From Escherichia coli (lineage in GTDB: Bacteria > Pseudomonadota > Gammaproteobacteria > Enterobacterales > Enterobacteriaceae), in NCBI RefSeq assembly GCF_011045215.1, contig NZ_CP049201.1: a stretch of DNA of 64,000 nt. One strand, 5' to 3'. Made by a program: the position numbers and the translations under genes. The first letter of the stretch is position 1. The number at the start of each line of letters is the position of its first letter. The notes beneath the pieces are model-generated. The model had not been told where the DNA came from and made no database searches. It saw only the letters and a list, made by a program, of their open reading frames with translations. Shown piece by piece: positions 9,572-26,395 of this stretch.

Positions 9572-10195
9572 TCACATTTCCTGGTTAGGTTTACGGGTGG
9601 TTCCCCCGCTGTCGCCAGGGTGATCATGAGTATTATAAATTTCGCGAATTTTACTCATGCTGCCGGTTTTATCGGTGATCTCCTGTGAGGCACCGATATT
9701 GCCCAGAACCTGCGTATCGGCATTAATCTTCGTTTCTCCCTGCACAGTCAGGGTATCCGTGATTTCCACCGGACCGTCCAGCGTTCCCCTGCCGGTGATT
9801 TTATAGCTGCCGCTTTCAGCCAGCGTGATGGACAGGGCATTGGCTTTACGGTCGTAACGGATTTCCGTTCCGGTATCAAACAAAATAACATGCTCGTGTT
9901 CACTGCCCGCCGGTACAGGAATGGCGTCAATATTCGCCCCCGGATACACACGACCGTTACGCAGATCGCCCGCCTCCGATATCACCGTGACCGCATCTCC
10001 TGGTGCCGGGTAATTACTGACCTGCATGTAACGCCCGGACTGCATCTGAATCCAGGGCAACGGCGGCGAAAGCACATCTCCGATATCCACCCGAACCATC
10101 ACCGGGTTACCCGGGATCACCTCTTCCACCACGCCGCGACGGATCATGTCCGCCACCCTGCGGCGTAACTCTGCCACTTCATCCGCCAGACTCAT
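9572..10195 (-). CDS. Baseplate spike/assembly protein V
   Basis: Start MSLADEVAELRRRVADMIRRG... resembles P2 gpV N-terminus; ORF track 5' extension to 10354 unlikely to be coding. Confidence 0.75.
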   Translation of the reverse strand: MSLADEVAELRRRVADMIRRGVVEEVIPGNPVMVRVDIGDVLSPPLPWIQMQSGRYMQVSNYPAPGDAVTVISEAGDLRNGRVYPGANIDAIPVPAGSEHEHVILFDTGTEIRYDRKANALSITLAESGSYKITGRGTLDGPVEITDTLTVQGETKINADTQVLGNIGASQEITDKTGSMSKIREIYNTHDHPGDSGGTTRKPNQEM

Positions 10196-10711
10196 CGCCG
10201 GTGCCCTCCGCTTTCCAGATAAGACGATAATCCTGCACATGCTTTTTACCGGTTTCCGGTACTTTACCCAGCCAGACTTCCTGTAACGGCACACCTGCCG
10301 GAGCCGCAAACGGATCTTCGCCGACCGGAATGTCCTGTTCAAAAGAGAAAGCAAACAAACAAGATAATAAGTTGAATTTAAAGGAATAAAAAAGGCATCA
10401 TTTTTGCTTTTGGTACAAATTCTAGTCCGTATAAACGCGGAAAAATCCGCTAAATTAAGATAAAAAAGATGCTTAGATAGTTACTATGTTTAGCTTCATG
10501 GCTACGGGGAGTAAGTTTGCTCTTTGCTTAATCTCGGTTATGGAAATCCCCATATCGGCATCATGCCCACCAGCGTGACGCATTTTTTTTAATTTCGCGG
10601 GTATAAAAATTTGACGAGGCGGGCGGTCCCATAAGCAATGGGGTGTAGGGATTCCGATCCCCCTGGGGGGGGTATTAAACACCCACCCTATTTAAATACC
10701 GTCTTTTTTGT

Positions 10712-10757
10712 CACTGTGTGTCACTGGTTGTCACTCTCCGTCACGGTATGCCACCAT
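10712..10757. repeat. Clustered GTCAC(T) direct repeats
   Basis: tgtcactgtgtgtcactggttgtcactctccgtcacgg: four copies within 46 bp in a noncoding stretch between tail and island. Confidence 0.6.
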
Positions 10758-10760
10758 AAG

Positions 10761-11075
10761 TTAACGTCGTAACCGCTCCGGCTTCTTCCAGTGGTAAGTA
10801 ATTTTTTCTTTCTCCTGGTACATCTGCACGCGGCGACGGTATGACAACATCTCCAGAACTCTGGTGCGTATATTGCGCATATCCACGCCGTTAAGCTCAA
10901 TACCGTCACGGCGCATCACCTCAGCCACCACACGCGCGTAATTTTCGGCTATCACGCTGTCCGGCTGCGTGGCCTCCTGTTTGCCTGCTGGTGGTCTGAT
11001 TCCGGCAGCACGGCGAATCATTTTGAGCATTTCGGCTTCGGTCATTGTCATGGCCTCCGTGGTGATGGAAAACAA
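10761..11075 (-). CDS. Hypothetical protein
   Basis: 104 aa ORF (probable start MTMTEAEMLKMI...) just downstream of island terS; no family recognised. Confidence 0.4.
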   Translation of the reverse strand: MFSITTEAMTMTEAEMLKMIRRAAGIRPPAGKQEATQPDSVIAENYARVVAEVMRRDGIELNGVDMRNIRTRVLEMLSYRRRVQMYQEKEKITYHWKKPERLRR

Positions 11076-11084
11076 TGCCGTAAT

Positions 11085-11310
11085 TGTGGCGGGTCCTTCC
11101 TGGAAAATGAAACACCGGGGGTGGCCATACGCGCAATTCTTAACTGTTTATGAAAATTTTTCGGGAAAAGTCAGATCCGTTCTTCTTCTCTGTAACTCAT
11201 TGTTTAATGGTAAAATCATCAAAAAAAGAAAGGATCTGGCAGTGGTCATTCTGGGCCCAAAATGACGTTATCAGATCCTTTCTCAGTTTTGTTCAATAAT
11301 TGCGCGGTTG
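11085..11310 (+). other. cos-like site, inverted copy (cosQ-cosN-cosB-like)
   Basis: Plus strand GGGTCCTTCCTGG..GAAACACCGGGGGTGGCCATACGCGC..TTTATGAAAATTTTTCGGG..CCGTTCTTCTTC aligns with phage lambda cos as I recall it; opposite orientation to the other two cos sites. Confidence 0.55.
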
Positions 11311-11895
11311 TCACTCAGCTCTCTGTTGCCGTAACTTCTCCGGCACGTTTCCGGTTGTTTCCATCAGATAATCTTCCAGAATGCGGGGCAGGTTATCGGC
11401 AGTTTTAGCGCACGCATTACAGGCGCGTGCTGTTTCCCTCCTCAGGCCATCGATCATTGCCGGAGTCATCGCGGGAAACTGCCTTTGCATCGTAAGGGGC
11501 AAGCTATTCATGATGGTTGAAATCTGTTGCGCCAGTTTAGACAGTGCATACATACAAAAGCCGGTATCTATAACCTCTCCTGTCTCCCTGGCGTTCTTCA
11601 GTTCCTGCCCGTCAGCCTGTGCTTTAGTGAGACGGTATCGTTCGTACTCTGTTGTGCCTGGCTGTAAATCTGATTCACCAACGGCACGTAAATCATCAAG
11701 CTCACTGCGGAGTTTTTCTTTTTCGATCTCCTTCTCCCTCTGTACATACCATTCGATCACCTGTGAAGAGTCGAAAGTCACCTCCATACCTTTTCCGCCA
11801 CCAGATACATGGGGGAGCCCTTGCATCTGCCAACGTTCAATTGTGCGCGGATCAACACCGAAAATCTCTGCCAGTCTCTTTTTGTTAACATTCAT
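11311..11895 (-). CDS. Terminase small subunit (lambda Nu1-like)
   Basis: MNVNKKRLAEIFGVDPRTIERWQMQGLP...GGGKG...LQPGTTEYERYRL... closely resembles lambda Nu1 throughout. Confidence 0.85.
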   Translation of the reverse strand: MNVNKKRLAEIFGVDPRTIERWQMQGLPHVSGGGKGMEVTFDSSQVIEWYVQREKEIEKEKLRSELDDLRAVGESDLQPGTTEYERYRLTKAQADGQELKNARETGEVIDTGFCMYALSKLAQQISTIMNSLPLTMQRQFPAMTPAMIDGLRRETARACNACAKTADNLPRILEDYLMETTGNVPEKLRQQRAE

Positions 11896-12130
11896 TTATC
11901 AAATCCTCATCAAAAACCACCTCCGACATGAAACGCCTGAAAAACGGGATTTTCCGGCGTTATGGTGTCGTATGTTTATTATAGTTAATTTAAATAAAAA
12001 CATAATGTTACATGCAAGAAGTACCGACATGCTTTTTCCCTGAAAAATTTTCATAAATAGTGAAAATCTGCGCGTCTGCCGCCCCGCGGTGTTTCTGATT
12101 CTGGAAAGGACCCGTGAAAATTGGGGCGAT
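11896..12130 (-). other. cos site of island (cosQ-cosN-cosB)
   Basis: Minus strand ACGGGTCCTTTCC..GAAACACCGC GGGGCGGCAGAC GCGCAG..CTATTTATGAAAATTTTTCAGG about 190 nt upstream of terS start, matching lambda cos geometry. Confidence 0.6.
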
Positions 12131-12194
12131 CACCACCGTTCCGGATACAAAAAAAATCGCGAGACCTTGCCAGCCTCGCGAACGTTCATTTCAG

Positions 12195-12620
12195 TTACTT
12201 AACAGACAGCAACAGCTTTTCATCTTCGGTCAGTCCGGCGTTGCCATCACCGGCTGCTGGCCCAACACATTTCGGGCTGTGCTTTTCCATGTACGCTTCA
12301 AACAGAAAAGCCGTTTTCTTTTCCTGCATCATTGCCTGGGCATCCACGGCAGCCAGTAACGTTTGTGCATAGGTTACTGTCATTACTTCAGAACCACACT
12401 CAATCAGCTTACTGGTGAACTCAGGGTATTTTGATGCCAGCGGTAACGCCTTGATACCCTCTATGCGCTGTTTATCACTCTCAGCCTTTGCAGTAAGCAC
12501 CGTTCGGGCTTCTGTCAGTGATGCGCCATTATTTGCGAGATTTTCCGCAAGCGTCGGGTATTTCTGCGCCTCAGGCAGTGCCATGATCAATGCTCTGGTT
12601 GAATTTGCTTTCTCAGTCAT
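12195..12620 (-). CDS. Scaffolding protein (Nu3-like)
   Basis: 141 aa; ALPEAQKYPTLAENL.../ALPLASKYPEFTSKL... repeats resemble the C-terminal repeat region of the prophage C protein (24914-26395). Confidence 0.5.
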   Translation of the reverse strand: MTEKANSTRALIMALPEAQKYPTLAENLANNGASLTEARTVLTAKAESDKQRIEGIKALPLASKYPEFTSKLIECGSEVMTVTYAQTLLAAVDAQAMMQEKKTAFLFEAYMEKHSPKCVGPAAGDGNAGLTEDEKLLLSVK

Positions 12621-12634
12621 AAATCACCACAAAA

Positions 12635-12964
12635 TTATTGCCCTAAAGGCTGCACGGAAATACCGGAACCAACAAAAGACGACACTTTTTTCTCGAACGT
12701 GTCCGCTGTATCAGGCCAGTTAATTTCATCGATATTAAAAACCCCGCACTTATAAACCTGTGCGCGGTTTTTTGTGGCCGTGTTAATGTCCGATATGGTC
12801 AGATACACCGCCTTACCGGGTGTACCGTCCCACTCAACCATCAGGCCCGCGCCGTTCTGCATCAGCGGAGTTCTCGCTTTAATTTCTCCGGCACTGGCAA
12901 AACAGGCCAGCGTGCTGACCAGTTCCTGCGTGCCGGAAAGGAATTGCGTGTAAGGTGTTGGCAT
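12635..12964 (-). CDS. Head decoration protein (lambda gpD-like), divergent second copy
   Basis: 109 aa; TPLM...GLMVEWDG...VYKCGVF...WPD...GSGISV pattern matches gpD. Confidence 0.75.
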   Translation of the reverse strand: MPTPYTQFLSGTQELVSTLACFASAGEIKARTPLMQNGAGLMVEWDGTPGKAVYLTISDINTATKNRAQVYKCGVFNIDEINWPDTADTFEKKVSSFVGSGISVQPLGQ

Positions 12965-12974
12965 ACGATCCCCT

Positions 12975-14030
12975 TTATTTCACTTCGACGGTAACAAAGC
13001 GACCAATATCCACGGGTACTGGCTGCGGGGCGCTGTGCGTCTGCACGTATTCAATCGCCGGATCGCCCGGTACGATATAATTTTTCGGGTAGTACATCCC
13101 CTCAGAAAATCCCTCGCGTGCCGCGTCCTGATCCATGATGGCACCATAAGCAACAAGGCCTTTATTTTCGGTATTGCCGAAAACCATCATGTTTTGTTTC
13201 AGGAAATATTGCTGCTGCCCGTTTTCGTCGTCATAACGACCGGAATAAACCACGATCGCCACATCACCGAGATACCCCTTGAAGCTGACAACGCCGCCCA
13301 AATCTTTTAGCGCAAGTTCAAGTGACGAGTTTGAACCGCGACGCGTGTCCATTAGTTCGCGGAATCGACGGAACGAGCGCAAAATACGCCAGGCTTCGCC
13401 ACCCATGACGATAATATTTACCGTACCTTCGGAAAAATCAGCGTAAGCCTCAATGTCGCTTATCGGATCAAACGTTTCGGCATCCTGTTTTGACCATTCT
13501 TTCCCGCCAGCCTGCGTAATATGATTGGTTTCGGGTAATCCCCAGTCAATTTCATAACGCTCAATGCCTTCGCCCTCAATAACGTTACGGCCTGTTGTGA
13601 TGGCATTGACCGCCAGCCATTCAACACGCGCTTTGATGGCAGCAAGCTGTTTTTTCTGGCTGTCGTGAACCATTTTTACGCGGCGTAGTGCCGGGGAAGA
13701 CTGACCATTGCCGATCTGTTCTCCAGGCATGCGCATGATTGTTTTGGTGGGATCAATAACGTGTTTGGGCTTCATATAACCCGGCGTGAACGTGTTCGTT
13801 GTGAAACCTTTGTCACGCATAACCTGGCTGCCTGACATTGGAGAACAAAACGGACTCATGACCACGTTTTCAATATCCAGCGTATCAAGTGCAATATCTC
13901 TGGTGCTGAAAGTAGCGACGTTCGGAAAGAACAACGTAGTAAAGAGTGGATTAAATTTAAATTCCGGCACATCTTCGCGCCCGATATTTTTCAGTAGCGT
14001 TGGTGTGCTTACCAGTTGCGGCGCTGTCAT
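12975..14030 (-). CDS. Major capsid protein (lambda gpE-like), divergent second copy
   Basis: 351 aa; TPGYMKPKH, NITQAGGKEWSKQDAETFDP, DTRRGSNSSLELALKDLG motifs shared with lambda E and the prophage E at 23439-24467. Confidence 0.85.
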   Translation of the reverse strand: MTAPQLVSTPTLLKNIGREDVPEFKFNPLFTTLFFPNVATFSTRDIALDTLDIENVVMSPFCSPMSGSQVMRDKGFTTNTFTPGYMKPKHVIDPTKTIMRMPGEQIGNGQSSPALRRVKMVHDSQKKQLAAIKARVEWLAVNAITTGRNVIEGEGIERYEIDWGLPETNHITQAGGKEWSKQDAETFDPISDIEAYADFSEGTVNIIVMGGEAWRILRSFRRFRELMDTRRGSNSSLELALKDLGGVVSFKGYLGDVAIVVYSGRYDDENGQQQYFLKQNMMVFGNTENKGLVAYGAIMDQDAAREGFSEGMYYPKNYIVPGDPAIEYVQTHSAPQPVPVDIGRFVTVEVK

Positions 14031-14236
14031 TACTCACCCCCATGAGGCTGATTCATACCAAGCGCAGCGCGTAAATGGCTGCGTACCATCCAGCCGACTG
14101 ACGGCTTCACCAGGCACAACGGATCAAGGCCGATTTTTTTTCCTGCCTCTGCGTTCTCCTCAAAGCGCGCATTAAGTGCGGCGATAATATCGGGGCTGAT
14201 GTACACGGATACACCGCCCGGCTTCTGTGTTCCCAT
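14030..14236 (-). CDS. Hypothetical protein
   Basis: Small ORF immediately upstream of island capsid gene; no family recognised. Confidence 0.3.
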   Translation of the reverse strand: MGTQKPGGVSVYISPDIIAALNARFEENAEAGKKIGLDPLCLVKPSVGWMVRSHLRAALGMNQPHGGE

Positions 14237-14494
14237 AAATGAGATTCCTCTTTGACTAAAAAACAAACATAACGAAAAGTCATGTCATGATTTTAATTAT
14301 CGTTGCACTTTTTGCAATATAATTGACTATTGTTGCGAATAATGAAATCATTATGTCGTGGTTTTAATCCTTGTACCACAGAGTTGTTTAGCATTAATCA
14401 CGTTAGCGGCGTGAAATCCCCCGGAACCTCATCCCGGGGGATTTTTTTGCGCACAAAAAAGCCGGGAAAAATCCCGGCTTCTGTCACTCGTTGC

Positions 14495-14917
14495 TTAAAA
14501 CGGTATTTCATCCCCGTACGGATCATCATTTCCCGCCTGTTGTTTTGCTCTGCTCAGTGCATCAGTAGCCTGCCCCTGTTGGCCTTTTTTGCCGCCCGGT
14601 CGCGCCGTTCTGGCACTGATTACACTGTCTGCGATAACCTGCCAGCTCTGCCGCGTTTCGCCGTTCTGGCCTGTCCACTGGCTTACCTGCATGTTACCCG
14701 CCACGCTCACCAGTTCGCCTTTGCGGTGTTTTGCCAGTGCGTCGGCCTGTCTGCCAAACGCCAGGACGGATAACCACATCGTCGCCGTTCCGTCATCTGC
14801 CTGGCTGCACGGCAGGGGAACCGCCATACTCGCCATCGCCATTTGTGTTCCCTTGCTGGTGGTCTTTAACTGCGGGTCAGCCACCAGCCGCCCGTAAGCT
14901 GCTATCTGTGCTGTCAT
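14495..14917 (-). CDS. ssb: Single-stranded DNA-binding protein
   Basis: 140 aa with Gly/Gln-rich linker and acidic C-terminal tip ...DDPYGDEIPF typical of SSB. Confidence 0.7.
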   Translation of the reverse strand: MTAQIAAYGRLVADPQLKTTSKGTQMAMASMAVPLPCSQADDGTATMWLSVLAFGRQADALAKHRKGELVSVAGNMQVSQWTGQNGETRQSWQVIADSVISARTARPGGKKGQQGQATDALSRAKQQAGNDDPYGDEIPF

Positions 14918-15165
14918 GCTGTCTGCTCTCCGGTTTTAACGTTGATGGTTGTCACCTGTTCCGCTTCGGCAATCTCCCGCTCTGTCAGCGTGGCAAAGTT
15001 TGCCGCCGCTGTGGTCATGAATGCGCTTATCAGTTCGGGATGTGCTTTTGCGTATCCTTCTCCGGCATGGCGGTCTATTGTTCTGATTGCCACCTTTAAG
15101 GCGTGCTCTGTCATGTCTAACGCTTTATATTTTGGCGCTGTCTTATCTCTGGTTTTTTTGGTCAT
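14914..15165 (-). CDS. Hypothetical protein
   Basis: 83 aa ORF between replication gene/iterons and ssb. Confidence 0.4.
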   Translation of the reverse strand: MTKKTRDKTAPKYKALDMTEHALKVAIRTIDRHAGEGYAKAHPELISAFMTTAAANFATLTEREIAEAEQVTTINVKTGEQTA

Positions 15166-15188
15166 TTCTCACTATTCCCCACTTTTTC

Positions 15189-15367
15189 GCCTCACTTTTT
15201 AAGCTCCCAACATGATTTCCAACCTTGTTTTTTTGTGATTCTAATATGTTGTTTTTCAATGTGTTTTTTATTCCTCACTTTTGAGCCTATATACAGGTTG
15301 AAAAGTGAGGGGCGCGGTTGCTTTTTGTTCAGTTTCTGCTATCCCCTCACTTTTGTGCCTCACTTTT
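15189..15367. repeat. Iteron cluster (putative island replication origin)
   Basis: CCTCACTTTT at 15189, 15273, 15345, 15358 plus inverted copy AAAAGTGAGG at 15301, directly 3' of helicase-primase gene. Confidence 0.55.
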
Positions 15368-16782
15368 TACAGTGGGCGCACATCATCACCGTCAATAGTG
15401 ATAACGCCGTCTCTTTCCAGCTTGTACAGCCAGCGCCGAAAGTTTTTCATCTCATACCCCAGCTTTTTCATATCATCACGCAATAACGGGATAGTGCATT
15501 TATCGCCGCGCTGTGTGCGTGAACGGATACAGCCCCATAGCGCGGCGTGATTCTCCGTCTTGTTTCCGGCCTCCTCAATGCGCTCCAGTTCAACAGGTGG
15601 GCGCGGCTTATCCACTACCACCAGCGACGTGATTAACTCCTTGTCAGCGTCGATAAAAAGCTCCACCACGCGTAAATCGTATGCGGCCTCTTTCAGTTCC
15701 TCTGCGTCCTTCATTTTGGTGCAGGAGATAACCAGGGCTTCACTGTCTGCACCTTCCCGGCGAATACGGTATTCAGCGTCCAGAGATGCACGAAATGCAC
15801 TGGAACCACGCGCCCCCTTTGTTTCATCCTTGCCGGAATGGTGAACCACCAGTACCGTGGCCCCTGTGCGTCGTTTCAGTTCGTCACATCCACGGATAAA
15901 CGCCCCCATATCCCGCGCGTCATTTTCATCATTACCGCCAAAACACCGCGCCAGCGTATCCAGAATAATCATGCGTACCGGTTTACCCGTTTCCCTTTCA
16001 ACCTGGCGGGAAGCGATGACCATTTCATCAATATCAAACTGTGCTGCCGGAAAAATCGGGCGGTTTACCAGGTACAGATTTTTCACCCGTTCATCATTAA
16101 CGATTTCCCATGCTTTGATACGACGAGGGACACCAATGCCACCTTCACCGACGACATACATCACCGAACCATGCGCCACCCTGCGGCCTCCCCAGTGGCG
16201 ACCCGTGGCAACATGACACGCCCAGGAACACGCGAGGAATGATTTATAGGAACCGCTCGCGCCGTATGTGCTGCACAACGAATTAGCCGGAATCACGCCC
16301 TTAACGACATAATCAAGCTGTGTGTCGTACCCTGCAGATCCAATACTCATTGGTAGCGTGGTTTTTCGCTGGTCGTTTTTTTCTTCCTCCGGTATCTCTC
16401 CGGACCGTCTTTTCTGGCGCTCTCGTTCCAGATATTCGCGCCACCCCTCCCGCTTCTGGCTGTGCATTCCCTCAGGGTAATAATTCGCATCCCGTACACC
16501 TGCCGCTGCCAGCTTTTGCCCGATGGCATTAATATTTGACGGCTTGATGTGGCCTGCCTTGTACAGCCGGACACAATAGCGACCATCGTCGATAATTTTC
16601 AGGTCAGCCAGTTCGTCAAGATGGCTGTCTCCAAGCCATACAGGCGGAACATTGTCGCCAGCAAGTCGCCCGTCCTGCTCCTGCCATTGTTTCGCGTGCG
16701 CCCAGGCATCACTACCCGCAAAAATAATGACTTCGGTCATTTTGTCGTGCGGCTGTTTTTTTAAGTTCGGTGCCAGTTTCAT
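15367..16782 (-). CDS. Replication protein, RepA-like helicase/primase (AAA_25-type P-loop NTPase)
   Basis: 471 aa; Walker A GASGSYKS, Walker B RMIILDTLARCF, ...VLVVHHSGKDE...; N-terminal extra domain. Confidence 0.7.
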   Translation of the reverse strand: MKLAPNLKKQPHDKMTEVIIFAGSDAWAHAKQWQEQDGRLAGDNVPPVWLGDSHLDELADLKIIDDGRYCVRLYKAGHIKPSNINAIGQKLAAAGVRDANYYPEGMHSQKREGWREYLERERQKRRSGEIPEEEKNDQRKTTLPMSIGSAGYDTQLDYVVKGVIPANSLCSTYGASGSYKSFLACSWACHVATGRHWGGRRVAHGSVMYVVGEGGIGVPRRIKAWEIVNDERVKNLYLVNRPIFPAAQFDIDEMVIASRQVERETGKPVRMIILDTLARCFGGNDENDARDMGAFIRGCDELKRRTGATVLVVHHSGKDETKGARGSSAFRASLDAEYRIRREGADSEALVISCTKMKDAEELKEAAYDLRVVELFIDADKELITSLVVVDKPRPPVELERIEEAGNKTENHAALWGCIRSRTQRGDKCTIPLLRDDMKKLGYEMKNFRRWLYKLERDGVITIDGDDVRPL

Positions 16783-17078
16783 TTTTTACCCCTGAATGCG
16801 TTAATCATGTTTTTCATTTTCTGAATGTTCGCCCGTGCCTTTGCGTTGCTGGTGGGCTGTTTGCATGGCGTGGCCTGTATCAGTGAAAAATCACGCCGGA
16901 ACTGATAAACAGGCATCACGCAGTCATAGCCGTACCCATCACGGCGGTAAGTAACGCACCGTCCCGCCACGCTTTTAATCGTTACCGTGCCGCCGTAGTT
17001 ATCCCGGAAAATATCGCCGGGGCGGATTTCAGGCCGAGCGGGGCCGCTGGCAGTAAAGCCAGAAATTTTCTGTTTCAT
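16779..17078 (-). CDS. Hypothetical protein
   Basis: 99 aa ORF, start overlaps helicase-primase gene. Confidence 0.4.
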   Translation of the reverse strand: MKQKISGFTASGPARPEIRPGDIFRDNYGGTVTIKSVAGRCVTYRRDGYGYDCVMPVYQFRRDFSLIQATPCKQPTSNAKARANIQKMKNMINAFRGKK

Positions 17079-17094
17079 GGTTTTTATTCCTCTG

Positions 17095-17294
17095 CGCGGG
17101 TCTTGTTGTGTATTTCCATAACCGCGTTTAATTCATCAATAACCGGGGTTAACAGAGTGCTGAAAGCAGAAAATAAATCCCCCCCCCTGTTCGGCATGAA
17201 CTTCGGTTAATTTAATTAATACCGCTTTCATTTCCAGTGCCCGGTTTAATGCATTCTCAGAATGAATAAGAACATCGAAAGGGATTTTATCCAT
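17095..17294 (-). pseudogene. Small ORF interrupted at G9 homopolymer (frameshift or phase-variable)
   Basis: ATG at 17294 reads MDKIPFDVLIHSENALNRALEMKAVLIKLTEVHAEQGGG then poor frame; with G8 it continues ...DLFSAFSTLLTPVIDELNAVMEIHNKTRAEE to a stop 5 nt before next gene. Confidence 0.35.
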
Positions 17295-17753
17295 GGCTTA
17301 CATCCTCCGGGAATTTTCTTCTGTAACGCGCCTCTGCAACATATTCCGCATAGTCCGACGCAATATTGAGAATCTCCACACCCTCTGACCTGTAGCCACT
17401 GGTACTGATAAGAAAAAATGCGGCTTTCATCATGTCGGCAACGCATAACAACGCATCGCCTGTATGTTCCGGTGCGCCATCAAATTCCTGTTTCAGGGCA
17501 TTAAAACGATCATCACGCATAACCCCCCCCCATTTTCACAATCAGTAATCAGGATGGCTTTAGCCTCATTCAGTGCCATATCAGCACTAAATTGCATAAC
17601 AGCCAGTGAGTGAGGAACGAAATCCCCGGCATATTCTGTTTCGCTGGTGGCGTGCTTATGTGCCCTGTCCGCGATAACAGAAATATCAATCAGCGCGTGC
17701 ATCAGCGTTTTGATGGCTTCGGCGGCTGCGTCCTGACGGGTGTTATTGCACAT
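17287..17753 (-). pseudogene. Gene split by G9 homopolymer (86-aa + 77-aa ORFs; fuse with G10)
   Basis: ORF 17493-17753 ends ...CENGGGLCVMIVLMP; one extra G in the tract at 17523-17531 gives ...GGGVMRDDRFNALKQEF... continuous with ORF 17287-17520. Confidence 0.4.
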
Positions 17754-17949
17754 GGCGCACCTCCTGACGAATACGGGCGGCGAATACCATCACGCAGCCA
17801 TCAGGAGATTGCTGACGCGCTTCCTGTTCGTTGGTGGCCTCAATGGTAATCACGCGCGGTTGTGCCGTGCTCAGGGCGATAAAACGCCAGATGTATTTAT
17901 TCAGGTTGTGCGAGTCCCGCCCTTGCGGGTGTGTGGTATGATTTAACAT
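17743..17949 (-). CDS. Small protein, first gene of leftward island operon (Cro-like position)
   Basis: 68 codons (MLNHTTHPQGRD...RHVQ) with RBS GAGGT; divergent from RHH gene across operator region; not in ORF track as a separate ORF. Confidence 0.4.
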   Translation of the reverse strand: MLNHTTHPQGRDSHNLNKYIWRFIALSTAQPRVITIEATNEQEARQQSPDGCVMVFAARIRQEVRHVQ

Positions 17950-18088
17950 AGCTACCTCGATAATCTTGCTATCGTTGGTGGTTAGACGCCCTGCATGTGT
18001 ACCACCACTGCGGGGCGTTGCGTTTTTTGATGTGCACGTGTTAAGGTGTACACCTAACGAACCAAAACATAACGCCATAGGTGTACAC
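17950..18088. promoter_or_regulatory. Divergent promoter/operator region of island
   Basis: Perfect palindrome GGTGTACACC at 18045-18054 and GGTGTACAC at 18080-18088 just before the RHH start; CACGTG at 18033. Confidence 0.5.
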
Positions 18089-18283
18089 ATGTCAACAGTT
18101 ATTAAGCGCGATAAAAAACAAAAAGGCACAGGAAAGGCCCCACCATTCCATATGCGTATAGTCCCTGAATTGAAGGAGCAGTTTGATAACGAAGCCAGTA
18201 ACGATGGAGTAAGTCTTGCCAACTGGCTTAAAGAGTTAGGGCGCAAAGAACTGCTACGGCGCGGAATTGAACCAAAGGGATAA
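18089..18283 (+). CDS. Ribbon-helix-helix-like DNA-binding protein (putative island repressor or antitoxin)
   Basis: 64 aa from MSTVIKRDKKQKG...; basic N-terminus, start right after operator palindromes. Confidence 0.45.
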   Translation: MSTVIKRDKKQKGTGKAPPFHMRIVPELKEQFDNEASNDGVSLANWLKELGRKELLRRGIEPKG

Positions 18284-18292
18284 CTATCACTA

Positions 18293-18823
18293 ATGTCGCA
18301 ACCAGAGGAGTTGCGACTCCGAAGATTACATAGGAAATTAATGATTATGGGATTCGTCATTTTCATTGCGATCGTAATTTTATCCATTTACGTTCTTACC
18401 AAATTATTTATTTCAGAAAATTCACACGACAAAATTAGAGCCGAGGCATCCAGAAGAATTGCACAAGAAGAGGCCGAACGGGCTAAGTTGTATGAAGAGA
18501 GAAAGGAATCATCTGATAATCCTGTTAATAAACAAAAACGAATAACAACACACGAAGATCATTTTTATATGGATATTCATGGTGGTCACAAATATATATG
18601 TGTTGATGCTAAGTTAGTTTTTGAATATGCAAATTTAAAACACAACTATTTTCTTCACGCCTCTCACTATTTCCCTGAGTTAGAGTATGTTTATGGAAAA
18701 AACGAACATGGGAAAATAGTTAGAGTAGATTTGTACGATAAAAAAATTCAAGCTATTAACCCCGATACTGGCGAAAAAATACCTGGTGTGAGACGTTATC
18801 TACGACAGCACAAGATAAAATAG
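18293..18823 (+). CDS. Hypothetical membrane-anchored protein (AT-rich cargo gene)
   Basis: 176 aa; N-terminal TM helix MIMGFVIFIAIVILSIYVLTKLF; markedly AT-rich; followed by hairpin+T-run terminators. Confidence 0.45.
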   Translation: MSQPEELRLRRLHRKLMIMGFVIFIAIVILSIYVLTKLFISENSHDKIRAEASRRIAQEEAERAKLYEERKESSDNPVNKQKRITTHEDHFYMDIHGGHKYICVDAKLVFEYANLKHNYFLHASHYFPELEYVYGKNEHGKIVRVDLYDKKIQAINPDTGEKIPGVRRYLRQHKIK

Positions 18824-19238
18824 CCCACCGGAATTTTTTTCCGGTTACGCTTTGCCCACCAGCCGCAAATGTGGCATTGTTGGCTATGCTCATGCGTTGG
18901 GGATAACGCGCAATTAGTGTTGAAGGGCCACCGTAGCGGGTGGCCTTTGTTTTGCCTGTTATCCGGCAATTGTGGCGCTTCGCCACACGGTTGATATAAT
19001 CCTCCTGCACAGATTCATTTTTTGCGCAGCAGGTTAATTGTTCGCAAGGGCGCTCCGGCAACTGGGCGCTTTTTGTTTTTACCCACCAGCACAATAAAAA
19101 TCTTCATTTTCCATTTTTGCAAAATTTCATGCTTTCCGGACGACTGGCCATATGTCATTTTTTAGCAGAAGATTTTGCCTTGCTGGTGGGTAGCTTCCCG
19201 GTTAACACGATGTACCGTATAATCAGCACCGCACGCGG

Positions 19239-19820
19239 TTACTGAATACGCTCACCAAAGTAAAACTCAGGCTGATATTCACGTATCAGCCTTTTTTCTT
19301 CTTCCTCCAGCTCACGCTTTTTGCGCTTACATGCCTGTAGTTCCCTCCCCTTCTCGCTGGCACTTATCTGGTATTGCTCTTTGCGACGGGAAAAATCCTG
19401 TAATGCGCCCCACGGGATACCATAAGCCCCCGTTTTTCTGATACCCGGTATCACATTTCTGAATACCCAGTTACTGAAACGATGGGCGAACGTGCCAGGA
19501 GTAGCAGCTTTTCGACTTCTGGCAATCAGCTTGTAAAAACCAGATTCAGAAACGACGCTATGATTTGGATTTCCGCGAATACCGTAAGTTAAAGTTACGG
19601 TATTACTTTCATCATCATCCAGAGCTTGCAACGCCATGCGTGAATTAGTCAGTTCCAGCGCAGCGCAGACATCCTTTGCAACAAACCACGGATCGCCGTT
19701 CAGATACACCACGCGAACGTTCACACTATCAAAGCGCAGAACGACCAGATCACGAATATCACAGAATTTTTTCACTGGACGTGCGTCACCCTTGCCAGTC
19801 ACGGCAATATTTTTATTCAT
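19239..19820 (-). CDS. Bro-N domain protein (putative antirepressor)
   Basis: 193 aa; N-terminal ...GDPWFVAKDVCAALEL... Bro-N-like; coiled-coil C-terminus. Confidence 0.55.
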   Translation of the reverse strand: MNKNIAVTGKGDARPVKKFCDIRDLVVLRFDSVNVRVVYLNGDPWFVAKDVCAALELTNSRMALQALDDDESNTVTLTYGIRGNPNHSVVSESGFYKLIARSRKAATPGTFAHRFSNWVFRNVIPGIRKTGAYGIPWGALQDFSRRKEQYQISASEKGRELQACKRKKRELEEEEKRLIREYQPEFYFGERIQ

Positions 19821-19870
19821 CGCTTTTTACCTCACATACAAAAAACCCCGCATTGCGCGGGGTATATCAA

Positions 19871-20080
19871 TCATTGACGATATTCATTAGCTTGTTTTCG
19901 TTGTCTTTCCAGCCACGATGCAACATCATCACGATGCCATGCGTTGCGTCGCCCAATCTTAAAGGGGCGTGGAAATTTATTTTTTTCATCATTCATGAAA
20001 GCGTAAAATGCACTCATTGCACCGTAGCGAAGCTCTGCCATCACGTCTTTGGTAAATAGAATATTGCCGTTAGTGCTCAT
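19871..20080 (-). CDS. AlpA-family transcriptional regulator/excisionase-like
   Basis: 69 aa, ...RRNAWHRDDVASWLE... typical AlpA/Xis HTH; immediately downstream of P4-type int. Confidence 0.75.
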   Translation of the reverse strand: MSTNGNILFTKDVMAELRYGAMSAFYAFMNDEKNKFPRPFKIGRRNAWHRDDVASWLERQRKQANEYRQ

Positions 20081-20086
20081 ATTGCC

Positions 20087-21319
20087 TCACATATTCACTA
20101 CTTTTAGCCCCTGATGACCACCAGAACGACGGATAATTCCCTTTCTGGCATCATCAACAAAATCACCAATCCATTGCATCATGATCTTACGTTGCTCAAA
20201 ATATTTTGAGCGATTATAAATATCACGAATAGCATCGCCGCTTTTATGGGCTAATGCTGCCTCAATAACATCTGGGTTAAACCCTTCTTCGTTGAGTAAC
20301 GTACTCCACATAGCCCGGAATCCGTGGGCAGTTGCAATACCATAAAATTGTCCATCTTTGAAACACTTATGACGCAACACGCTTGATATAGCTTTCCCCG
20401 GATTCTTTGGAGAAAAAAATATATAGCTACCACATTTTATTTTATTCATTTCATTTAAAATATCCACGGCTTGCCGTGAAAGCGGAACTACGTGTTCACG
20501 TCCACACTTCATTCTTTCAGGGGGAATTGTCCAGATACAATTTTCTAAATCAATTTCCTCCCATTTTGCCTCCCTTGCTTCACATGGTCGTACCATAGTG
20601 AAAATCTGGAACAAAAGAGAGCATCTTATAGAGATATTACTTGTAGTATCCCACCAGTTCAAAAATTCTGATAACAGTTCAACTGGTAATGCCTTTAATG
20701 GGGTATGTTTTTTTGTTGCAAATGCATTTCTTATTGTTGATAGCGGGTTATTTTTAATTACTCCAGAGTTAACACAGTAATTCATTATTTCATTAATTTT
20801 TGAAATAATTTTATCCAATACAGAATTACGATCAGAAAATTGATTAAGCAATGGTATGACCACAGGCGCGGTCATATCATGTATGTACACATTTCCAAAT
20901 ACAGGGATTATATGTCTGTTCAATAACTCTTCTATTGTCTGTAAAGTCGACAGTCGCAAATCACCTTTTTTCTTAAAATTAAACCATTCAATTGCAATAG
21001 CACCAAACGTCTGTAAGTGCTTTCTTTTAGCCTCGAGTCGTTTTTCTGCCCGGTATGATAACGGATCTATATCCCGTGCCAACAATCTGCGCAGATTATC
21101 GCGTTCTTCTCTGGCTTCAACCAGCGTGAAATCGGGGTATCGCCCTATAGTGTATGTTTGCCGCTTCTTCGTAAAAGGTTGTACATAACGAAAACGCCAC
21201 GATTTACTACCGGCTTTTGACACATAAAGCAAAAGCCCAAACCCATCATATAGAGCGTAATCTTTCTCTCGTGGCCTGGCGCTTTTTACCTCTGATGCAG
21301 TAAGAGGCTTCACCGACAT
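20087..21319 (-). CDS. Tyrosine integrase, P4/CP4-57 type
   Basis: N-terminus MSVKPLTASEVKSARPREKDYALYDGFGLLLYVSKAGSKSWRFRY typical of P4-like integrases; C-terminal catalytic domain ...AHGFRAMWSTLLNE... Confidence 0.9.
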   Translation of the reverse strand: MSVKPLTASEVKSARPREKDYALYDGFGLLLYVSKAGSKSWRFRYVQPFTKKRQTYTIGRYPDFTLVEAREERDNLRRLLARDIDPLSYRAEKRLEAKRKHLQTFGAIAIEWFNFKKKGDLRLSTLQTIEELLNRHIIPVFGNVYIHDMTAPVVIPLLNQFSDRNSVLDKIISKINEIMNYCVNSGVIKNNPLSTIRNAFATKKHTPLKALPVELLSEFLNWWDTTSNISIRCSLLFQIFTMVRPCEAREAKWEEIDLENCIWTIPPERMKCGREHVVPLSRQAVDILNEMNKIKCGSYIFFSPKNPGKAISSVLRHKCFKDGQFYGIATAHGFRAMWSTLLNEEGFNPDVIEAALAHKSGDAIRDIYNRSKYFEQRKIMMQWIGDFVDDARKGIIRRSGGHQGLKVVNM

Positions 21320-21433
21320 ACAAGCACTCCAATACAAATTTTTTCTAGTCCATGCGCTGGTTCCTTTTGCCAGAATACTGGCGATAAAAAAGCGAAAAAC
21401 AAGGAACAATGCACACAATGAAAAAACCGCAAC

Positions 21434-21898
21434 TTATTGAATAAGAAGAAAAACAAAAAGAAACGGTAACGAAAGATAATGATTGCATAGTCCAAAAGAG
21501 ACACGGAAAACGATGTAGTCGTCCAGCAGTCGGTCGAAGGTATCCACCTCAGCATCAATAAAAACCGCCGGATCAACGTTATCCAGCCCGAACGTGGCTC
21601 CATCAATCCAGTCAGATAAATCCATTGCCAGACAGCGGGCAAATATCTGCGGTTTTGGCACGTTTTCCGTCTTTCCGGCCCGATCAGTCACCACAAACAG
21701 ATCGCATTTCAGCGTGACCCGTGTCTGCCCGTCGGCAAACTGAGCCTTGTCCCAGCCGGGTACATCCACAAACACGGCAGGCGTCACCAGTTGCGTCACT
21801 TTTTCCGGGTACTCATCGGCATCTTCCACCCAGGGAATTTGTTTCAGACTGTCAATCACTGCCTGATGCCAGGTTCCCATCATCAATGGTTCCATCAT
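21434..21898 (-). CDS. Putative tail-completion/head-tail adaptor-like protein, C-terminus atypical at island junction
   Basis: 154 aa after Z-like gene; last about 20 residues (LCNHYLSLPFLFVFLLIQ) are low-complexity and read into the A-rich junction next to island int. Confidence 0.4.
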   Translation of the reverse strand: MMEPLMMGTWHQAVIDSLKQIPWVEDADEYPEKVTQLVTPAVFVDVPGWDKAQFADGQTRVTLKCDLFVVTDRAGKTENVPKPQIFARCLAMDLSDWIDGATFGLDNVDPAVFIDAEVDTFDRLLDDYIVFRVSFGLCNHYLSLPFLFVFLLIQ

Positions 21899-23438: not shown

Positions 23439-24467
23439 TTATTTCACCTGAACCACCACAAACGCGTCCGGATCCGGCAACACCATCAACGGCGCAGACT
23501 GCGTCATGGTATATTCGCACCCCGGGTCCCCCACCTCTAACCAGTGTTTCGGATAACGAATTGCAGAGGTGATCCCTTCACTCAGCGCCTGGTTATCCTG
23601 GATTGCGCCATAACAACGGACACCCTCCACCTGAGTGTTTCCAAGAATCAGTGTGCCTTCCGGCAGATAACGCTGCTCATCCCCGTTTTCATCAACATAC
23701 GTTGTTTTCGCCACCATGATGGCCAGATCACCGTAATAACCTTTAAAAGAAACCACGGAACCCAGATCTTTCAGCGCGGTTTCCAGTTCAGATTTTGAGC
23801 CACGGCGGGTATCCAGTTTTTCACGAAACAGCTTAAAACCGTTCAGCATACGCCAGACAGTACCGTCCATAATCGCAATATTGATGGTACCGGAAGCAAA
23901 ATCGCAGTACGCATCCAGATCATGCGTCGGATCAAAGGTGTCAGCATTCTGTTTTGACCATTCGCGTCCCCCTGCCTGCGTTATGTTATTGGCGGCAGAA
24001 CGTCCAAAATCCACTTCCACCGTCTCAAACTGTTCACCGCTCATGGTGTACTTACCCTGCAGAACAGCGCTGACCGCCTGCATTTCTTCCACCTGCACAA
24101 TCGCCTGCTCTTCCTGTTTCAGGTTATCAGTCAGAATACGCAGGCGACGGTAGGCCGGGTCATTAAGACGGGCCGGATCTTCCCCCGGAAGACGCTCCAC
24201 CGCCTGCTGATAATCCAGCCGGTGTTTTGGTTTAACATAGCCGGGGCGTAACACGCGGGTTTCACCACCACGACTGCGCAGTACCTTACCTGACACAACC
24301 GGAGACACATATGCCGCAACCGGTGTTTTTCCGGTGATTTTATCCAGCATCACTTCCTGAGTATGGAAAGTGACCGTACGACGAAAAAACAGCTCCAGAA
24401 ACAGCGCACGGAATTTCACTTTCTGCTCGGTGTAGCCGAGCAACTGACGCGTGGTAAATAACCCCAT
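23439..24467 (-). CDS. Major capsid protein (lambda gpE-like)
   Basis: ...AAYVSPVVSGKVLRSRGG...PGYVKPKH...VQVEEMQAVSAVLQGKYTMSGE...DTRRGSKSELETALKDLG very close to lambda E as recalled. Confidence 0.9.
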   Translation of the reverse strand: MGLFTTRQLLGYTEQKVKFRALFLELFFRRTVTFHTQEVMLDKITGKTPVAAYVSPVVSGKVLRSRGGETRVLRPGYVKPKHRLDYQQAVERLPGEDPARLNDPAYRRLRILTDNLKQEEQAIVQVEEMQAVSAVLQGKYTMSGEQFETVEVDFGRSAANNITQAGGREWSKQNADTFDPTHDLDAYCDFASGTINIAIMDGTVWRMLNGFKLFREKLDTRRGSKSELETALKDLGSVVSFKGYYGDLAIMVAKTTYVDENGDEQRYLPEGTLILGNTQVEGVRCYGAIQDNQALSEGITSAIRYPKHWLEVGDPGCEYTMTQSAPLMVLPDPDAFVVVQVK

Positions 24468-24537
24468 AATTGACTTTCCTTTAAAAACACAAACGAACCG
24501 CATCACGACCCGTTTTTTTCAGTTAATCACTTCACCA

Positions 24538-24903
24538 TCAGGCGTGGCTGATGGCACTTCCCACAAACGCGTTGGCTTTTTTCACCGCATCCACCGAATC
24601 CGGCCAGACCAGCGATTCGGTGGCAAACGTACCGCTTTTGTAGTACGTCAGTGTGGGCTCGGTCCCGGCCAGCGCCAGTGCCAGTACCCCCACAGCCGTT
24701 CCGGCTTTCTGACCATCCCATGCCACCAGTTTTCCGCTGGCGTCATCCAGCATCAGTGGCGTCAGTGAAGGCGTGGCAACACTGATACCGCTGGTACCTG
24801 TTGCGGTATACACCGGATCGCTTCCGGCAAAAATGCGCCCGTCCGCACGCTTTTCTGTGGTGGTTTTAATCATTTTCTCAGTCTCCTGATTTATCTGAAT
24901 CAC
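24538..24903 (-). CDS. Head decoration protein (lambda gpD-like)
   Basis: ...TPLMLDDASGKLVAWDG...YYKSGTFATESLVWPD...GSAISHA matches gpD. Confidence 0.85.
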   Translation of the reverse strand: MIQINQETEKMIKTTTEKRADGRIFAGSDPVYTATGTSGISVATPSLTPLMLDDASGKLVAWDGQKAGTAVGVLALALAGTEPTLTYYKSGTFATESLVWPDSVDAVKKANAFVGSAISHA

Positions 24904-24913
24904 GGATCCCCGC

Positions 24914-26395
24914 TTACGGCATACTCATCAGCAGTTCTTCTTCCCCGTTCCCGGCAGTTCCGCCACCGGAAACGGCACTGGCGGCATGCTGTGCCATGAA
25001 GCGCTCAAAAAGTGTTACCTGTGACGGTTGCGATACTGATGGCGCAGCTGCCAGCAGTGTTTTCGCCTGGTCCACTGTCATTCCCGGCTGTTCAGCCAGC
25101 GCCTGTGCCAGTTTTTCGCGTCCTTTTGCTTCCGGAAGTGCCATTATCTGCTCGCCGGTACTTGCCGCACCGGTTGCCGGTGCCGCTGCCAGTAACATTT
25201 TCGCCTGTTCCACCGTCATTCCCGGCTGTTCAGCCAGCGTCCGTGCCAGTTGTTCACGCCCTTTTGCTTCCGGAAGTGCCACAATCTGATCGCCAGTACT
25301 GTCAGTACCGGCAACCGGTGCCGCTGCCAGTAACGTTTTCGCCTGCTCAACTGACATTCCCTGCTGACCTGCCAGCATCTGCGCCAGTTTTTCGCGTCCT
25401 TTCGCCTCCTGACAATTCAGGATCCCCATCACGCGCTGATTTTCCTGGGACACCGCTTCAGCAACGGTGAGATTTTTTGTTGTCATCGTATTCTCCTGTG
25501 TAACAGAGTCGTTCAGAGCAGAAACCATTACATCAACGGCATCTGCAGCATTAATCAGTTGATCAGCCAGGCCTGTATCAATGCCTGCCTGACCGTCATA
25601 AACGGCAGCCTCGGTATTCATCACCACCTCTGAACTCAGCCCCGTATAAAGTGCCACCTTGTCGACAAACATCCGGCGGGCCTCATCAATACGGCGCTGA
25701 AAATCCGCACGCACACCTGTCGGCAACGCCTGAATACTGTTGCCGTCAACCTTGTGCTGCCCGGAGTAAATCAGCGTGATATCCACCCCTTCCTGTGCCA
25801 GTTGTTTCTCATAACTGATGTGCGCCATCATCACACCAATCGAACCAATTTTTGCCGTCTGCGTGACCAGCCGACGCGTACAGGCTGCCGCCAGCAACAT
25901 GGCGGCTGAACAGGCCATGTCATTACACAGCGCCCACACGGGCTTCTGTTCCCGCAGACGGTAAATCATGTCAGCACAGTCAAACGCCCCGGCAGCCTGA
26001 CCGCCAGGACTGTCGATATCCAGCAAAATACCGCGCACATCCGGATCATTCACCGCCAGCTGAAGACGGGCGGTAAGACCGTCATAGCCTGTCATGCCAG
26101 AGTAAGGCCTCAGGGTACCCATTTTATGTACCAGCGTGCCGCTCACCGGCAGAATGGCGATGCCATTTTTCACCTGATAGCATTTTTCAGGACGCCGGCC
26201 ACCAGACATATAGTCCGCCACCGCCAGTTGCATACCGTCGGCATCAAGCTGAACATCCAGTTGCGGAACGGAAAGACTGCCCGCCCCCATCTCCTTACCC
26301 AGCGCGCAAAAGAAAACCCGCGCATAGGCGGGTTCCAGTAAAAGCGGTTCATTAAATGCCATGGCGGCAATATGCGATAAATTACGACGCATCAC
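24914..26395 (-). CDS. Head maturation protease/scaffold (lambda gpC-Nu3-like, S49 peptidase family)
   Basis: 493 aa; SppA/ClpP-like core ...GILLDIDSPGGQAAG...; C-terminal repeated scaffold-like segment. Confidence 0.85.
   Translation of the reverse strand: MMRRNLSHIAAMAFNEPLLLEPAYARVFFCALGKEMGAGSLSVPQLDVQLDADGMQLAVADYMSGGRRPEKCYQVKNGIAILPVSGTLVHKMGTLRPYSGMTGYDGLTARLQLAVNDPDVRGILLDIDSPGGQAAGAFDCADMIYRLREQKPVWALCNDMACSAAMLLAAACTRRLVTQTAKIGSIGVMMAHISYEKQLAQEGVDITLIYSGQHKVDGNSIQALPTGVRADFQRRIDEARRMFVDKVALYTGLSSEVVMNTEAAVYDGQAGIDTGLADQLINAADAVDVMVSALNDSVTQENTMTTKNLTVAEAVSQENQRVMGILNCQEAKGREKLAQMLAGQQGMSVEQAKTLLAAAPVAGTDSTGDQIVALPEAKGREQLARTLAEQPGMTVEQAKMLLAAAPATGAASTGEQIMALPEAKGREKLAQALAEQPGMTVDQAKTLLAAAPSVSQPSQVTLFERFMAQHAASAVSGGGTAGNGEEELLMSMP
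25030..25390 (-). repeat. Three in-frame tandem repeats of about 108 bp within the protease/scaffold gene
   Basis: Protein repeats ...GMTVEQAKxLLAAAP...TGxQIxALPEAKGREKLAxxLAEQP... x3; DNA repeats read directly. Confidence 0.6.

Follow-up and report, generated by a model that had tools for sequence, protein, structure and literature searches.

A helper-embedded phage satellite of Escherichia coli with a mosaic small terminase, paired cos sites and capsid homologues

We describe here a region of the Escherichia coli genome (assembly GCF_011045215.1, contig NZ_CP049201.1) in which a divergent set of lambda-like head and packaging genes lies inside a prophage that carries its own set. The window analysed is a stretch of 64,000 nucleotides, and the genes in question occupy positions 11311-14030. 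They encode a major capsid protein (E), a decoration protein (D), a scaffold-like protein and a small terminase (TerS) that adjoins a cos site. The region probably represents the late zone, for packaging and capsid, of a phage-inducible chromosomal island (PICI) of 11.15 kb, whose TerS and adjacent cos site (cos1) would act as a pair that recruits the large terminase (TerL) of a helper phage.

Genes and features of the region

The late zone contains the following features (lengths in amino acids, aa).

12975-14030, minus strand: gpE-like major capsid protein, 351 aa; matches Phage_cap_E over residues 14-328 of 329
12635-12964, minus strand: gpD-like head decoration protein, 109 aa; assigned by Pfam HDPD and PHROG
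12195-12620, minus strand: Nu3-like scaffold domain, 141 aa, without a protease domain; matches phrog_1999 and the C-terminal end of phrog_53 (head-protease family)
12157-12181, minus strand: intrinsic terminator with a 10-bp stem and 8 T, between the scaffold gene and cos1; kept in SA53-3 and TUM1881
11917-12127, minus strand: cos1, with cosQ, cosN and a phage-21-type cosB, directly upstream of terS; aligned with the annotated phage 21 cosB
11311-11895, minus strand: full-length small terminase, 194 aa, Nu1 family; Pfam Phage_Nu1 (PF07471), 1-162 of 164, E=3e-68
11077-11287, plus strand: cos2, with cosQ, cosN and a lambda-architecture cosB, inverted relative to cos1 and pointing at the terS 3′ end

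Their prophage counterparts lie further along the same strand.

23439-26395, minus strand: helper E, D and C/Nu3 genes, used as comparison copies; identified by BLASTP and prophage annotation
28163-30560, minus strand: helper TerL (650-aa open reading frame, ORF) and helper TerS (169 aa, 30051-30560)
30580-30800, minus strand: helper cos, with cosQ, cosN and a cosB with the repeat ACTTCCGGTTT; predicted cohesive end at 30746-30735, GGTCGTAGGACG

A preliminary description of this locus, made from the sequence alone, had proposed that E, D, scaffold and TerS are encoded here on one strand, in the order E, D, scaffold, cos, terS, as homologues of the prophage proteins that are far from identical with them. 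Both the genes and their order hold, with a lambda-type cosQ-cosN-cosB at 12127-11917 on the minus strand. In pairwise BLASTP comparisons, the island and prophage copies share 150/327 residues for E (46%, E=1e-104), 26/73 for D (36%, E=3e-12) and 68/181 for TerS (38%, E=1e-35), while the scaffold-like protein matches residues 365-490 of the 493-aa prophage C/Nu3 (46/134, 34%, E=2e-10). With identities of 34-46%, the similarity goes well past what chance would give, yet the copies are far from identical, and a recent duplication is therefore excluded.

The satellite island and its insertion site

The late zone is part of a larger island, delimited by the following features.

10349-21501, minus strand: whole satellite island, 11,153 bp; delimited by in silico removal and empty-site comparison
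10340-10348: attachment (att) identity block CAAAAGAGA at the terS-distal end; attR in island orientation
21493-21501: att identity block CAAAAGAGA adjoining the integrase gene; attL in island orientation
10179-10348, minus strand: flanking segment at the terS-distal island end, from joined-sequence and prophage-gene comparison
21502-21898, minus strand: target-gene flank on the integrase side, which in the integrated state reads into the island and stops after ~21 foreign codons

The same 9-bp block, CAAAAGAGA, stands at both island ends. Joining position 10348 to 21502 in silico produces a continuous reading frame of 188 aa, and E. coli C5 contains the joined 948-nt sequence without a break, at 99.9% identity. 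Because this empty site is uninterrupted in C5 and intact in 76 complete E. coli genomes, the island boundaries are real. The interrupted gene belongs to phrog_1072 (function not assigned) and lies between the tail-completion (Neck1) gene and baseplate gene V of the prophage. The island provides no replacement for the 56 C-terminal codons that its target gene loses. All assigned island genes, from int to a terminal 104-aa ORF, are on the minus strand, in the direction of the interrupted late operon. Integration within a helper late gene, co-oriented and without replacement sequence, is the configuration of a helper-embedded PICI as published in 2023 (PMC10111431), and we assign the island to it, since in silico removal restores a site that is intact in 76 genomes.

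Gene content and class of the satellite

Upstream and downstream of the late zone, the island encodes the following.

20087-21319, minus strand: tyrosine integrase, 410 aa from MSVKPLT; phrog_1
19871-20080, minus strand: AlpA-type regulator/excisionase, 69 aa; annotated as a helix-turn-helix regulator in relatives
19239-19820, minus strand: Bro-N / anti-repressor family protein, by PHROG assignment
15367-16782, minus strand: RepA-like helicase, replication initiator; phrog_2850 and phrog_906; relatives annotated 'helicase RepA family protein'
15177-15369: iterons, CCTCACTTTT-type repeats, directly 3′ of the replication gene
14495-14917, minus strand: single-stranded DNA-binding protein (SSB), by PHROG; 70% identical to the SSB of EcCICFT073
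14030-14317, minus strand: small ORF before E, 78 aa as listed; phrog_3255; 63% identical to its EcCICFT073 counterpart
10761-11075, minus strand: 104-aa ORF, phrog_1561; 74.5% identical to the last ORF of EcCICFT073

The island thus combines int, alpA, a Bro-N gene, a RepA-like helicase gene with iterons, an SSB gene, E, D, scaffold, cos and terS. The five PICI core components used by SatelliteFinder are an integrase, an AlpA-type regulator, a primase-replicase, a capsid-morphogenesis gene and a small terminase (PMC10085698). Here, the integrase sits at one island end, facing inward, with defined att sites. The AlpA gene, recognised through the annotation of relatives, adjoins int, and its product is 100% identical to the AlpA of a sister island in genome TUM9812. 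A predicted replicase is followed by iterons, the late zone supplies a capsid-morphogenesis gene and a small terminase with cos, and the island is a fraction of the size of the helper genome. The iterons are the probable origin of replication; PICI origins have been described immediately 3′ of the replication gene, the position that the iterons hold here (PMC6092414). By its gene set and att ends, the element is a Gram-negative PICI of the EcCICFT073 type. P4-like markers (sid, psu, delta, epsilon, an alpha-type primase-helicase) do not appear in the PHROG assignments of its ORFs or in the RefSeq annotation of near-identical islands, no dedicated profile search having been made for them, and Rfam and ARAGORN found no RNA genes in the island.

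EcCICFT073 (PMC6092414, PMC6739421) has the same plan: ~11 kb, with int, alpA, replication and SSB genes, a small ORF, E, D and a scaffold-like ORF, and then cos, a packaging gene, a second cos and a last ORF. It is reported to be mobilised by lambdoid helpers through cos packaging (PMC6092414, PMC6739421). The late zones share 64.5% identity in E, 47.7% in D, 29% in the scaffold-like ORF and 74.5% in the last ORF, and we read the zone described here as orthologous to that of EcCICFT073 and as the hallmark late zone of the described class. The two differ in three respects: the packaging gene of EcCICFT073 encodes RppA (144 aa, without a TerL-binding end), ~21% identical to the 194-aa TerS in its place here; the integrases are unrelated (22%); and EcCICFT073 is chromosomal rather than inside a prophage.

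Two other origins for a head-gene set of this kind are very improbable. One is that it is the remnant of a second prophage, or a diverged local duplication of the head module, as its position ~10 kb from a complete head module with homologous head and packaging genes might suggest. Against this stand the precise insertion, marked by a 9-bp identity block and by a site that is empty in 76 genomes, and the satellite gene set (alpA, an inward int and a replicon of its own); the same satellite architecture is also found at tRNA-Pro and other chromosomal sites. Furthermore, the genes are intact and under purifying selection, in an order unlike that of any lambda-type head module. The other is that the island is a capsid-forming PICI (cf-PICI), which would build complete capsids of its own and steal only tails. 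It does have capsid, decoration, scaffold and terS genes, but among its assigned ORFs PHROG finds no portal, protease, head-tail connector, HNH, TerL, tail or lysis genes, and the first five of these are the ones that define cf-PICIs (bioRxiv 10.1101/2022.09.08.507074; PMC10085698).

A mosaic small terminase next to a private cos

The island TerS belongs to the Nu1 family by its match to PF07471 and by matches to the structures PDB 6HN7_B (lambda TerS residues 1-98, E=6e-37) and 1J9I. As the preliminary description had it, this protein is closer to lambda Nu1 than the prophage TerS is: it is 51.7% identical to Nu1 over 180 aa, whereas the helper TerS aligns with Nu1 over its C-terminal ~110-120 aa alone. 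The helper protein has a non-Nu1 N-terminal domain and a Nu1-like C-terminal half, with Pfam Phage_Nu1 confined to residues 71-150.

The two halves of the island protein have different affinities. Over its first 100 residues, identity is 75% with phage 21 gp1, 76% with PhiR5_1 and 64% with lambda Nu1, and its recognition helix, RTIERWQ, is identical to that of phage 21; the first ~58 residues, where the DNA-binding domain lies, cannot be aligned with any part of the helper TerS. The C-terminal half is shared with the helper TerS, as had been proposed, at 50.7% identity, compared with 60.8% for PhiR5_1, 36% for lambda and 38% for phage 21. A conserved LPxxLxxY motif accompanies the similarity to the helper TerS. 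Over the full length, the closest phage relative is PhiR5_1 (68.5%). In lambda, the N-terminal ~70 residues of TerL are the Nu1-binding region. The N-terminal 70 aa of the helper TerL are 69% identical to PhiR5_1, 60% to lambda and 57% to phage 21, and they group in the same way as the C-terminal half of the island TerS. The island TerS therefore reads as a natural domain mosaic, in which a phage-21-like DNA-binding half is joined to a helper-like, putatively TerL-binding half. The ratio of non-synonymous to synonymous substitution rates (dN/dS) of terS is 0.20-0.34.

The adjacent cos1 has a predicted cohesive end at 12084-12073 (GGGCGGCAGACG) and a cosB with three sites: R3 (12035-12019), an inverted R2 (11980-11961) and R1 (11937-11917). 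These sites stand at the positions annotated for phage 21 and carry the phage 21 repeat, CATGTCGG. Together, these data support the view that the island TerS and cos1 are a cognate pair, distinct from that of the helper; since the DNA-binding domain of the helper TerS and its cosB repeat are both different, each TerS should select its own DNA. The arrangement that the preliminary description had called a packaging hijack, a private cos beside a TerS with a helper-like C-terminal half, is thus borne out at the sequence level, with the hijack itself the predicted outcome.

Two known systems follow a similar logic. In laboratory-made lambda-21 hybrid terminases (Frackman, Siegele and Feiss 1985, as summarised in PMC9026076), cosB specificity resides in the N-terminal half of TerS and TerL specificity in its C-terminal half; those hybrids combine two phages, whereas the island TerS is a natural satellite gene with the same mosaic logic. 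In pac-type Staphylococcus aureus pathogenicity islands (SaPIs), a satellite TerS homologue, TerS-S, recognises satellite DNA and uses the helper TerL (Ubeda 2007, as reported in PMC6739421), the function that we propose here. SaPIs are Gram-positive, package by headful (pac) and have an unrelated TerS family, whereas this satellite is of the cos type with a Nu1-family TerS.

A different role is suggested by the proteins that occupy this position elsewhere. Both EcCICFT073 and the TUM9812 island have rpp (144-146 aa) as the gene that follows cos, and Rpp proteins, which have no TerL-binding end, pair with the helper TerS (PMC6739421, PMC9026076). The island TerS might likewise enter mixed oligomers with the helper TerS and block helper packaging, with the helper TerS bridging to TerL. 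It stands exactly at the rppA position of those two islands. Its central and C-terminal 120 residues, with the oligomerisation region among them, match the helper TerS at 44% identity, and RppC matches the island protein weakly (E=0.002), in the DNA-binding domain alone. However, Rpp proteins are 139-154 aa long and end short of the 30-40 C-terminal residues to which TerL binding is ascribed (PMC9026076), whereas the island TerS has 194 aa and a complete Nu1 C-terminus. Mimicry of the Nu1 DNA-binding domain is also part of how Rpp pairs with TerS (PMC6739421), and the N-terminal domain of the helper TerS is not of the Nu1 type. We therefore regard Rpp-like poisoning as unlikely. No Ppi-like inhibitor of the helper TerS was identified in the island.

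A second cos and a cassette found in both orientations

On the other side of terS, cos2 has a predicted cohesive end at 11120-11131 (GGTGGCCATACG) and a complete cosB, with R3 at 11169-11185, an inverted R2 at 11224-11243 and R1 at 11267-11287 (repeat CAGATCC[G/T]TTCT). EcCICFT073 is likewise published as having two cos sites, for a reason that PMC6739421 asks about, and one of them lies just past the rppA 3′ end, placed and inverted as cos2 is here. Neither the island nor the helper has the cosN sequence of lambda, whose cohesive end, GGGCGGCGACCT, has only chance-level matches in the window, at two mismatches. A search for phages with a cosB of the cos2 type or the helper type gave a partial match to SerU-LTIIb alone.

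Inverted cosQ-cosN repeats, 93 nt long and 75% complementary in this island, bracket terS (11077-12127). The resulting unit (cosQN, cosB2, terS in reverse, cosB1 in reverse, cosQN in reverse) recurs, with both cos sites detected in 10 of the 11 terS-bearing loci. In three of these 11 E. coli loci (TUM1881, A36 and IGC), the inner segment is flipped with respect to its surroundings in the island. A comparison of SA53-3 with TUM1881 places the exchange point inside a ~33-bp identical block between cosN and cosB, so that after a flip each cosB is paired with the other cosN. These breakpoints in an identical block point to cassette inversion by recombination between the repeats. Terminase cutting followed by religation was considered as a cause and ruled out, as the cosN sequences differ and the breakpoints lie between cosN and cosB.

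Two further observations concern this part of the island and its relatives. The IGC_RcoliRes_1.1 island carries two oppositely oriented genes of small-terminase families, one encoding a 169-aa DUF1441-family protein and the other a Nu1-type TerS. In the island described here, four GTCAC pentamers with exact 10-bp spacing lie ~410 bp from cos2 (10710-10744, plus strand). This array is kept in eight other islands, four of which have different spacer bases; conservation of the spacing while the spacer bases differ suggests a phased protein-binding site.

The capsid, decoration and scaffold genes

The preliminary description had named an incomplete HK97/lambda-E fold of the island E as a finding that would count against it. 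The protein instead matches solved structures along its length, namely 3BQW (residues 8-350, E=4e-152) and the lambda gpE structure 7VI9 (E residues 22-350 against 7VI9 residues 15-340, E=3e-89), and by homology its HK97/gpE fold appears complete. 3BQW is a structural-genomics entry ('putative capsid protein of prophage') that matches the same 344 island-E residues as does c1499, the capsid homologue of EcCICFT073. We take it, by its size, to be the CFT073 c1499 protein, although the entry file names no source organism. The scaffold-like protein has no Pfam match.

Among 50,697 phage records, no phage E exceeds 47% identity to that of the island, while distinct PICIs share E at 57-65%. With a dN/dS of 0.07-0.10 for E and 0.18-0.30 for the scaffold gene, the trio is a satellite-specific lineage under purifying selection. 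A promoter-like site lies upstream (14317-14290), and E, D and scaffold are predicted to form one separate operon that ends at the strong terminator described above.

These features invite the idea that the trio builds a satellite-specific, possibly smaller shell on the helper portal and protease, which would make the island an intermediate between classical and capsid-forming PICIs. The trio comprises exactly the proteins that need a mutual fit, while the generic portal, protease, TerL and connectors are absent; the strong constraint on E, its closer kinship with other PICIs than with phages and the trio's own promoter-like site and terminator all fit, and a capsid homologue of SaPIbov5, Ccm, makes small capsids (as cited in PMC6092414). 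However, EcCICFT073 encodes both a capsid homologue, c1499, and a decoration homologue, c1500 (PMC6092414), and deletion of either changes neither transfer nor interference, the packaged DNA being phage-sized (PMC6092414). Islands with the same terS cassette also exist without the trio: it is absent from the tRNA-Pro islands of MB06102, C5 and A19. A partial capsid-forming role, which would be compatible with the packaging account, is therefore rather doubtful, though better placed than Rpp-like poisoning. Both SaPIbov5 Ccm and the cf-PICI EcCIEDL933 resemble this island in encoding a major-capsid homologue. Ccm redirects capsid size and cf-PICIs carry a whole head and terminase set, whereas this island has shell, decoration and scaffold alone, with orthologues for which no size effect is known.

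Since the orthologue knockouts are silent and sister islands lack E and D, the trio is not needed for the packaging step. The TUM9812 and CFT073 islands, in turn, combine the trio with Rpp, and the capsid trio and the packaging cassette are thus separable modules. Near the cassette, the MB06102 tRNA-Pro island has an F4 fimbrial subunit gene instead of the trio, and the C5 tRNA-Pro island has genes for a PAAR protein, an S-type pyocin and an immunity protein. In the A19 island, no such cargo is annotated within a 6.6-kb stretch around the cassette.

The helper prophage

The surrounding prophage has a lambda-type head and packaging module (TerS, TerL, W, portal, C/Nu3, D, E, FI and head closure) and a contractile tail (sheath, tube and baseplate V/W/J/I). 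Lambdoid early functions lie within the window, and close relatives are annotated with the antiterminator Q. This prophage is most likely the helper of the satellite.

Its right end would lie somewhere between ~54 and 58 kb, chromosomal DNA with kch (voltage-gated potassium channel, 58724-59995) follows on that side, and its left end is beyond the start of the window. The prophage also contains a sok antitoxin RNA (39643-39817; Rfam, 109 bits) and a weak tRNA-like match (33902-33972; 36 bits, not called by ARAGORN). In C5, the late module with the empty site (NZ_CP010122.1, 3564138-3605085) encodes a TerS 100% identical to that of the helper and has a Mu-type early region within ~4 kb (repressor, Mu transposase and AAA ATPase) in place of lambdoid early genes, which is either a striking mosaic or two adjacent prophages.

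Integrase lineage and distribution

The distribution of the island was surveyed in 5,426 complete E. coli genomes. Parts of it (10300-21500) match in 2,291 of them, this terS is present in 23, and the integrase in four: SA53-3 and CFIAFB20180511 carry it at the site described here, TUM9812 and AREA_492 in the helper TerL gene. The best matches in the set are 95.0% for the island (SA53-3) and 96.6% for terS (MB06102). The integrase is 99.5% identical to the helper-embedded copy in SA53-3, 94.6% to that of the TUM9812 sister island and 40% to a tRNA-Pro PICI integrase.

The nearest published elements by configuration are 11capE and its relatives (Tommasini, Mageeney and Williams 2023; PMC10111431), which share integration into a late gene, co-orientation and the four-zone organisation, with late-zone homologues 56.5% (E) and 52.7% (D) identical to those here. 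They differ in their integrase and in a doubled TGTATTGC motif, and 11capE lacks terS. The integrases of 11capE and this island are 26.8% identical and score 92 bits, where the survey of helper-embedded PICIs set its clade cut-off at 400 bits or more (PMC10111431), and the doubled arm motif is found nowhere in the window. All published helper-embedded sites in the parts of that source that were consulted are in lambda-cognate genes (A, B, C, E, J, L, T and V; PMC10111431), and the contractile-tail gene targeted here is not among the sites in the portions of its text and supplements covered. The att 9-mer and related accessions gave no relevant match in the att supplements that were covered, a weak indication given that the sequences there are line-wrapped.

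The TUM9812 sister island (NZ_CP128926.1, 2824249-2834864), inserted in its helper's TerL gene, has the same attP arms, otherwise identical around a core of CAGATGTG instead of CAAAAGAG. Its TerL-site attB is absent from the helper described here. In place of terS, it carries an RppA homologue (84%), and the TerS of its helper is of the phage 21 type (86%). The two cases compared are consistent with a match between packaging cassette and helper TerS type.

We tentatively suggest a broader reading, which seems to us a serious possibility if not quite an even one. The islands with this integrase would be an uncatalogued helper-embedded lineage with an unrelated integrase clade, retargeted between TerL and phrog_1072 by three bases of the attP core. 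The packaging cassette would be exchanged to suit the helper, with Rpp where the helper TerS is of the phage 21 type and a mosaic TerS where it has a non-Nu1 DNA-binding domain, and the terS cassette, between two inverted cos sites of different cosB specificity, might work as a switch that turns both ways, changing packaging direction or the range of helpers.

A packaging model

In the account that we favour, the embedded island splits a helper late gene between the tail-completion and baseplate genes, and it could be copied and transcribed as a passenger of the helper late operon. Once the prophage is induced, Int and AlpA would excise it at CAAAAGAGA, restoring the helper gene, and the RepA-like helicase would replicate it from the iterons. 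The island TerS would bind the phage-21-type cosB of cos1 through its phage-21-like winged-helix domain, while its helper-like C-terminal half would recruit the helper TerL, so that the island cosN is cut and island DNA is packaged in helper-built particles. Each TerS would select its own DNA alone.

Several points weigh against this account. Every step of binding, cutting and packaging in it is deduced from sequence. The C-terminal halves of the two TerS proteins are just 51% identical, and compatibility with the helper TerL is accordingly no stronger than plausible. For terS, no sigma-70 promoter was found, and the strong intrinsic terminator at 12157-12181 precedes the gene. Unless antitermination overrides that terminator, for instance when helper late transcription reads through it, terS stands as a transcription unit of its own, and its expression may therefore depend on antiterminated helper transcription. 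Furthermore, cos2, with its complete lambda-architecture cosB, has no role in the account. The silent c1499 and c1500 deletions and the cassettes without a trio leave the capsid genes outside it too. Finally, the surrounding prophage may not be the sole helper, or not a functional one.

Implications

The PICI class and helper embedding have already been published; what is new here is an integrase lineage with a retargeted att core, a mosaic TerS in the place of Rpp and a double-cos cassette. The island is a natural example of satellites that carry their own capsid and terminase homologues, of residence in a helper late operon and of two-domain TerS logic, all of which are known in outline, and it extends this knowledge modestly but concretely. 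A second integrase lineage has taken up helper embedding, and in it a three-base change of the attP core accompanies a new target gene. One island backbone can carry either Rpp or a full TerS, and in the two cases compared the choice tracks the TerS type of the helper. The inverted pair of cos sites, one with a phage-21-type and one with a lambda-type cosB and found in both orientations, gives a defined anatomy to the published question of why such satellites have two. The island also underlines that the E, D and scaffold trio of PICIs is an old, conserved and satellite-specific lineage.

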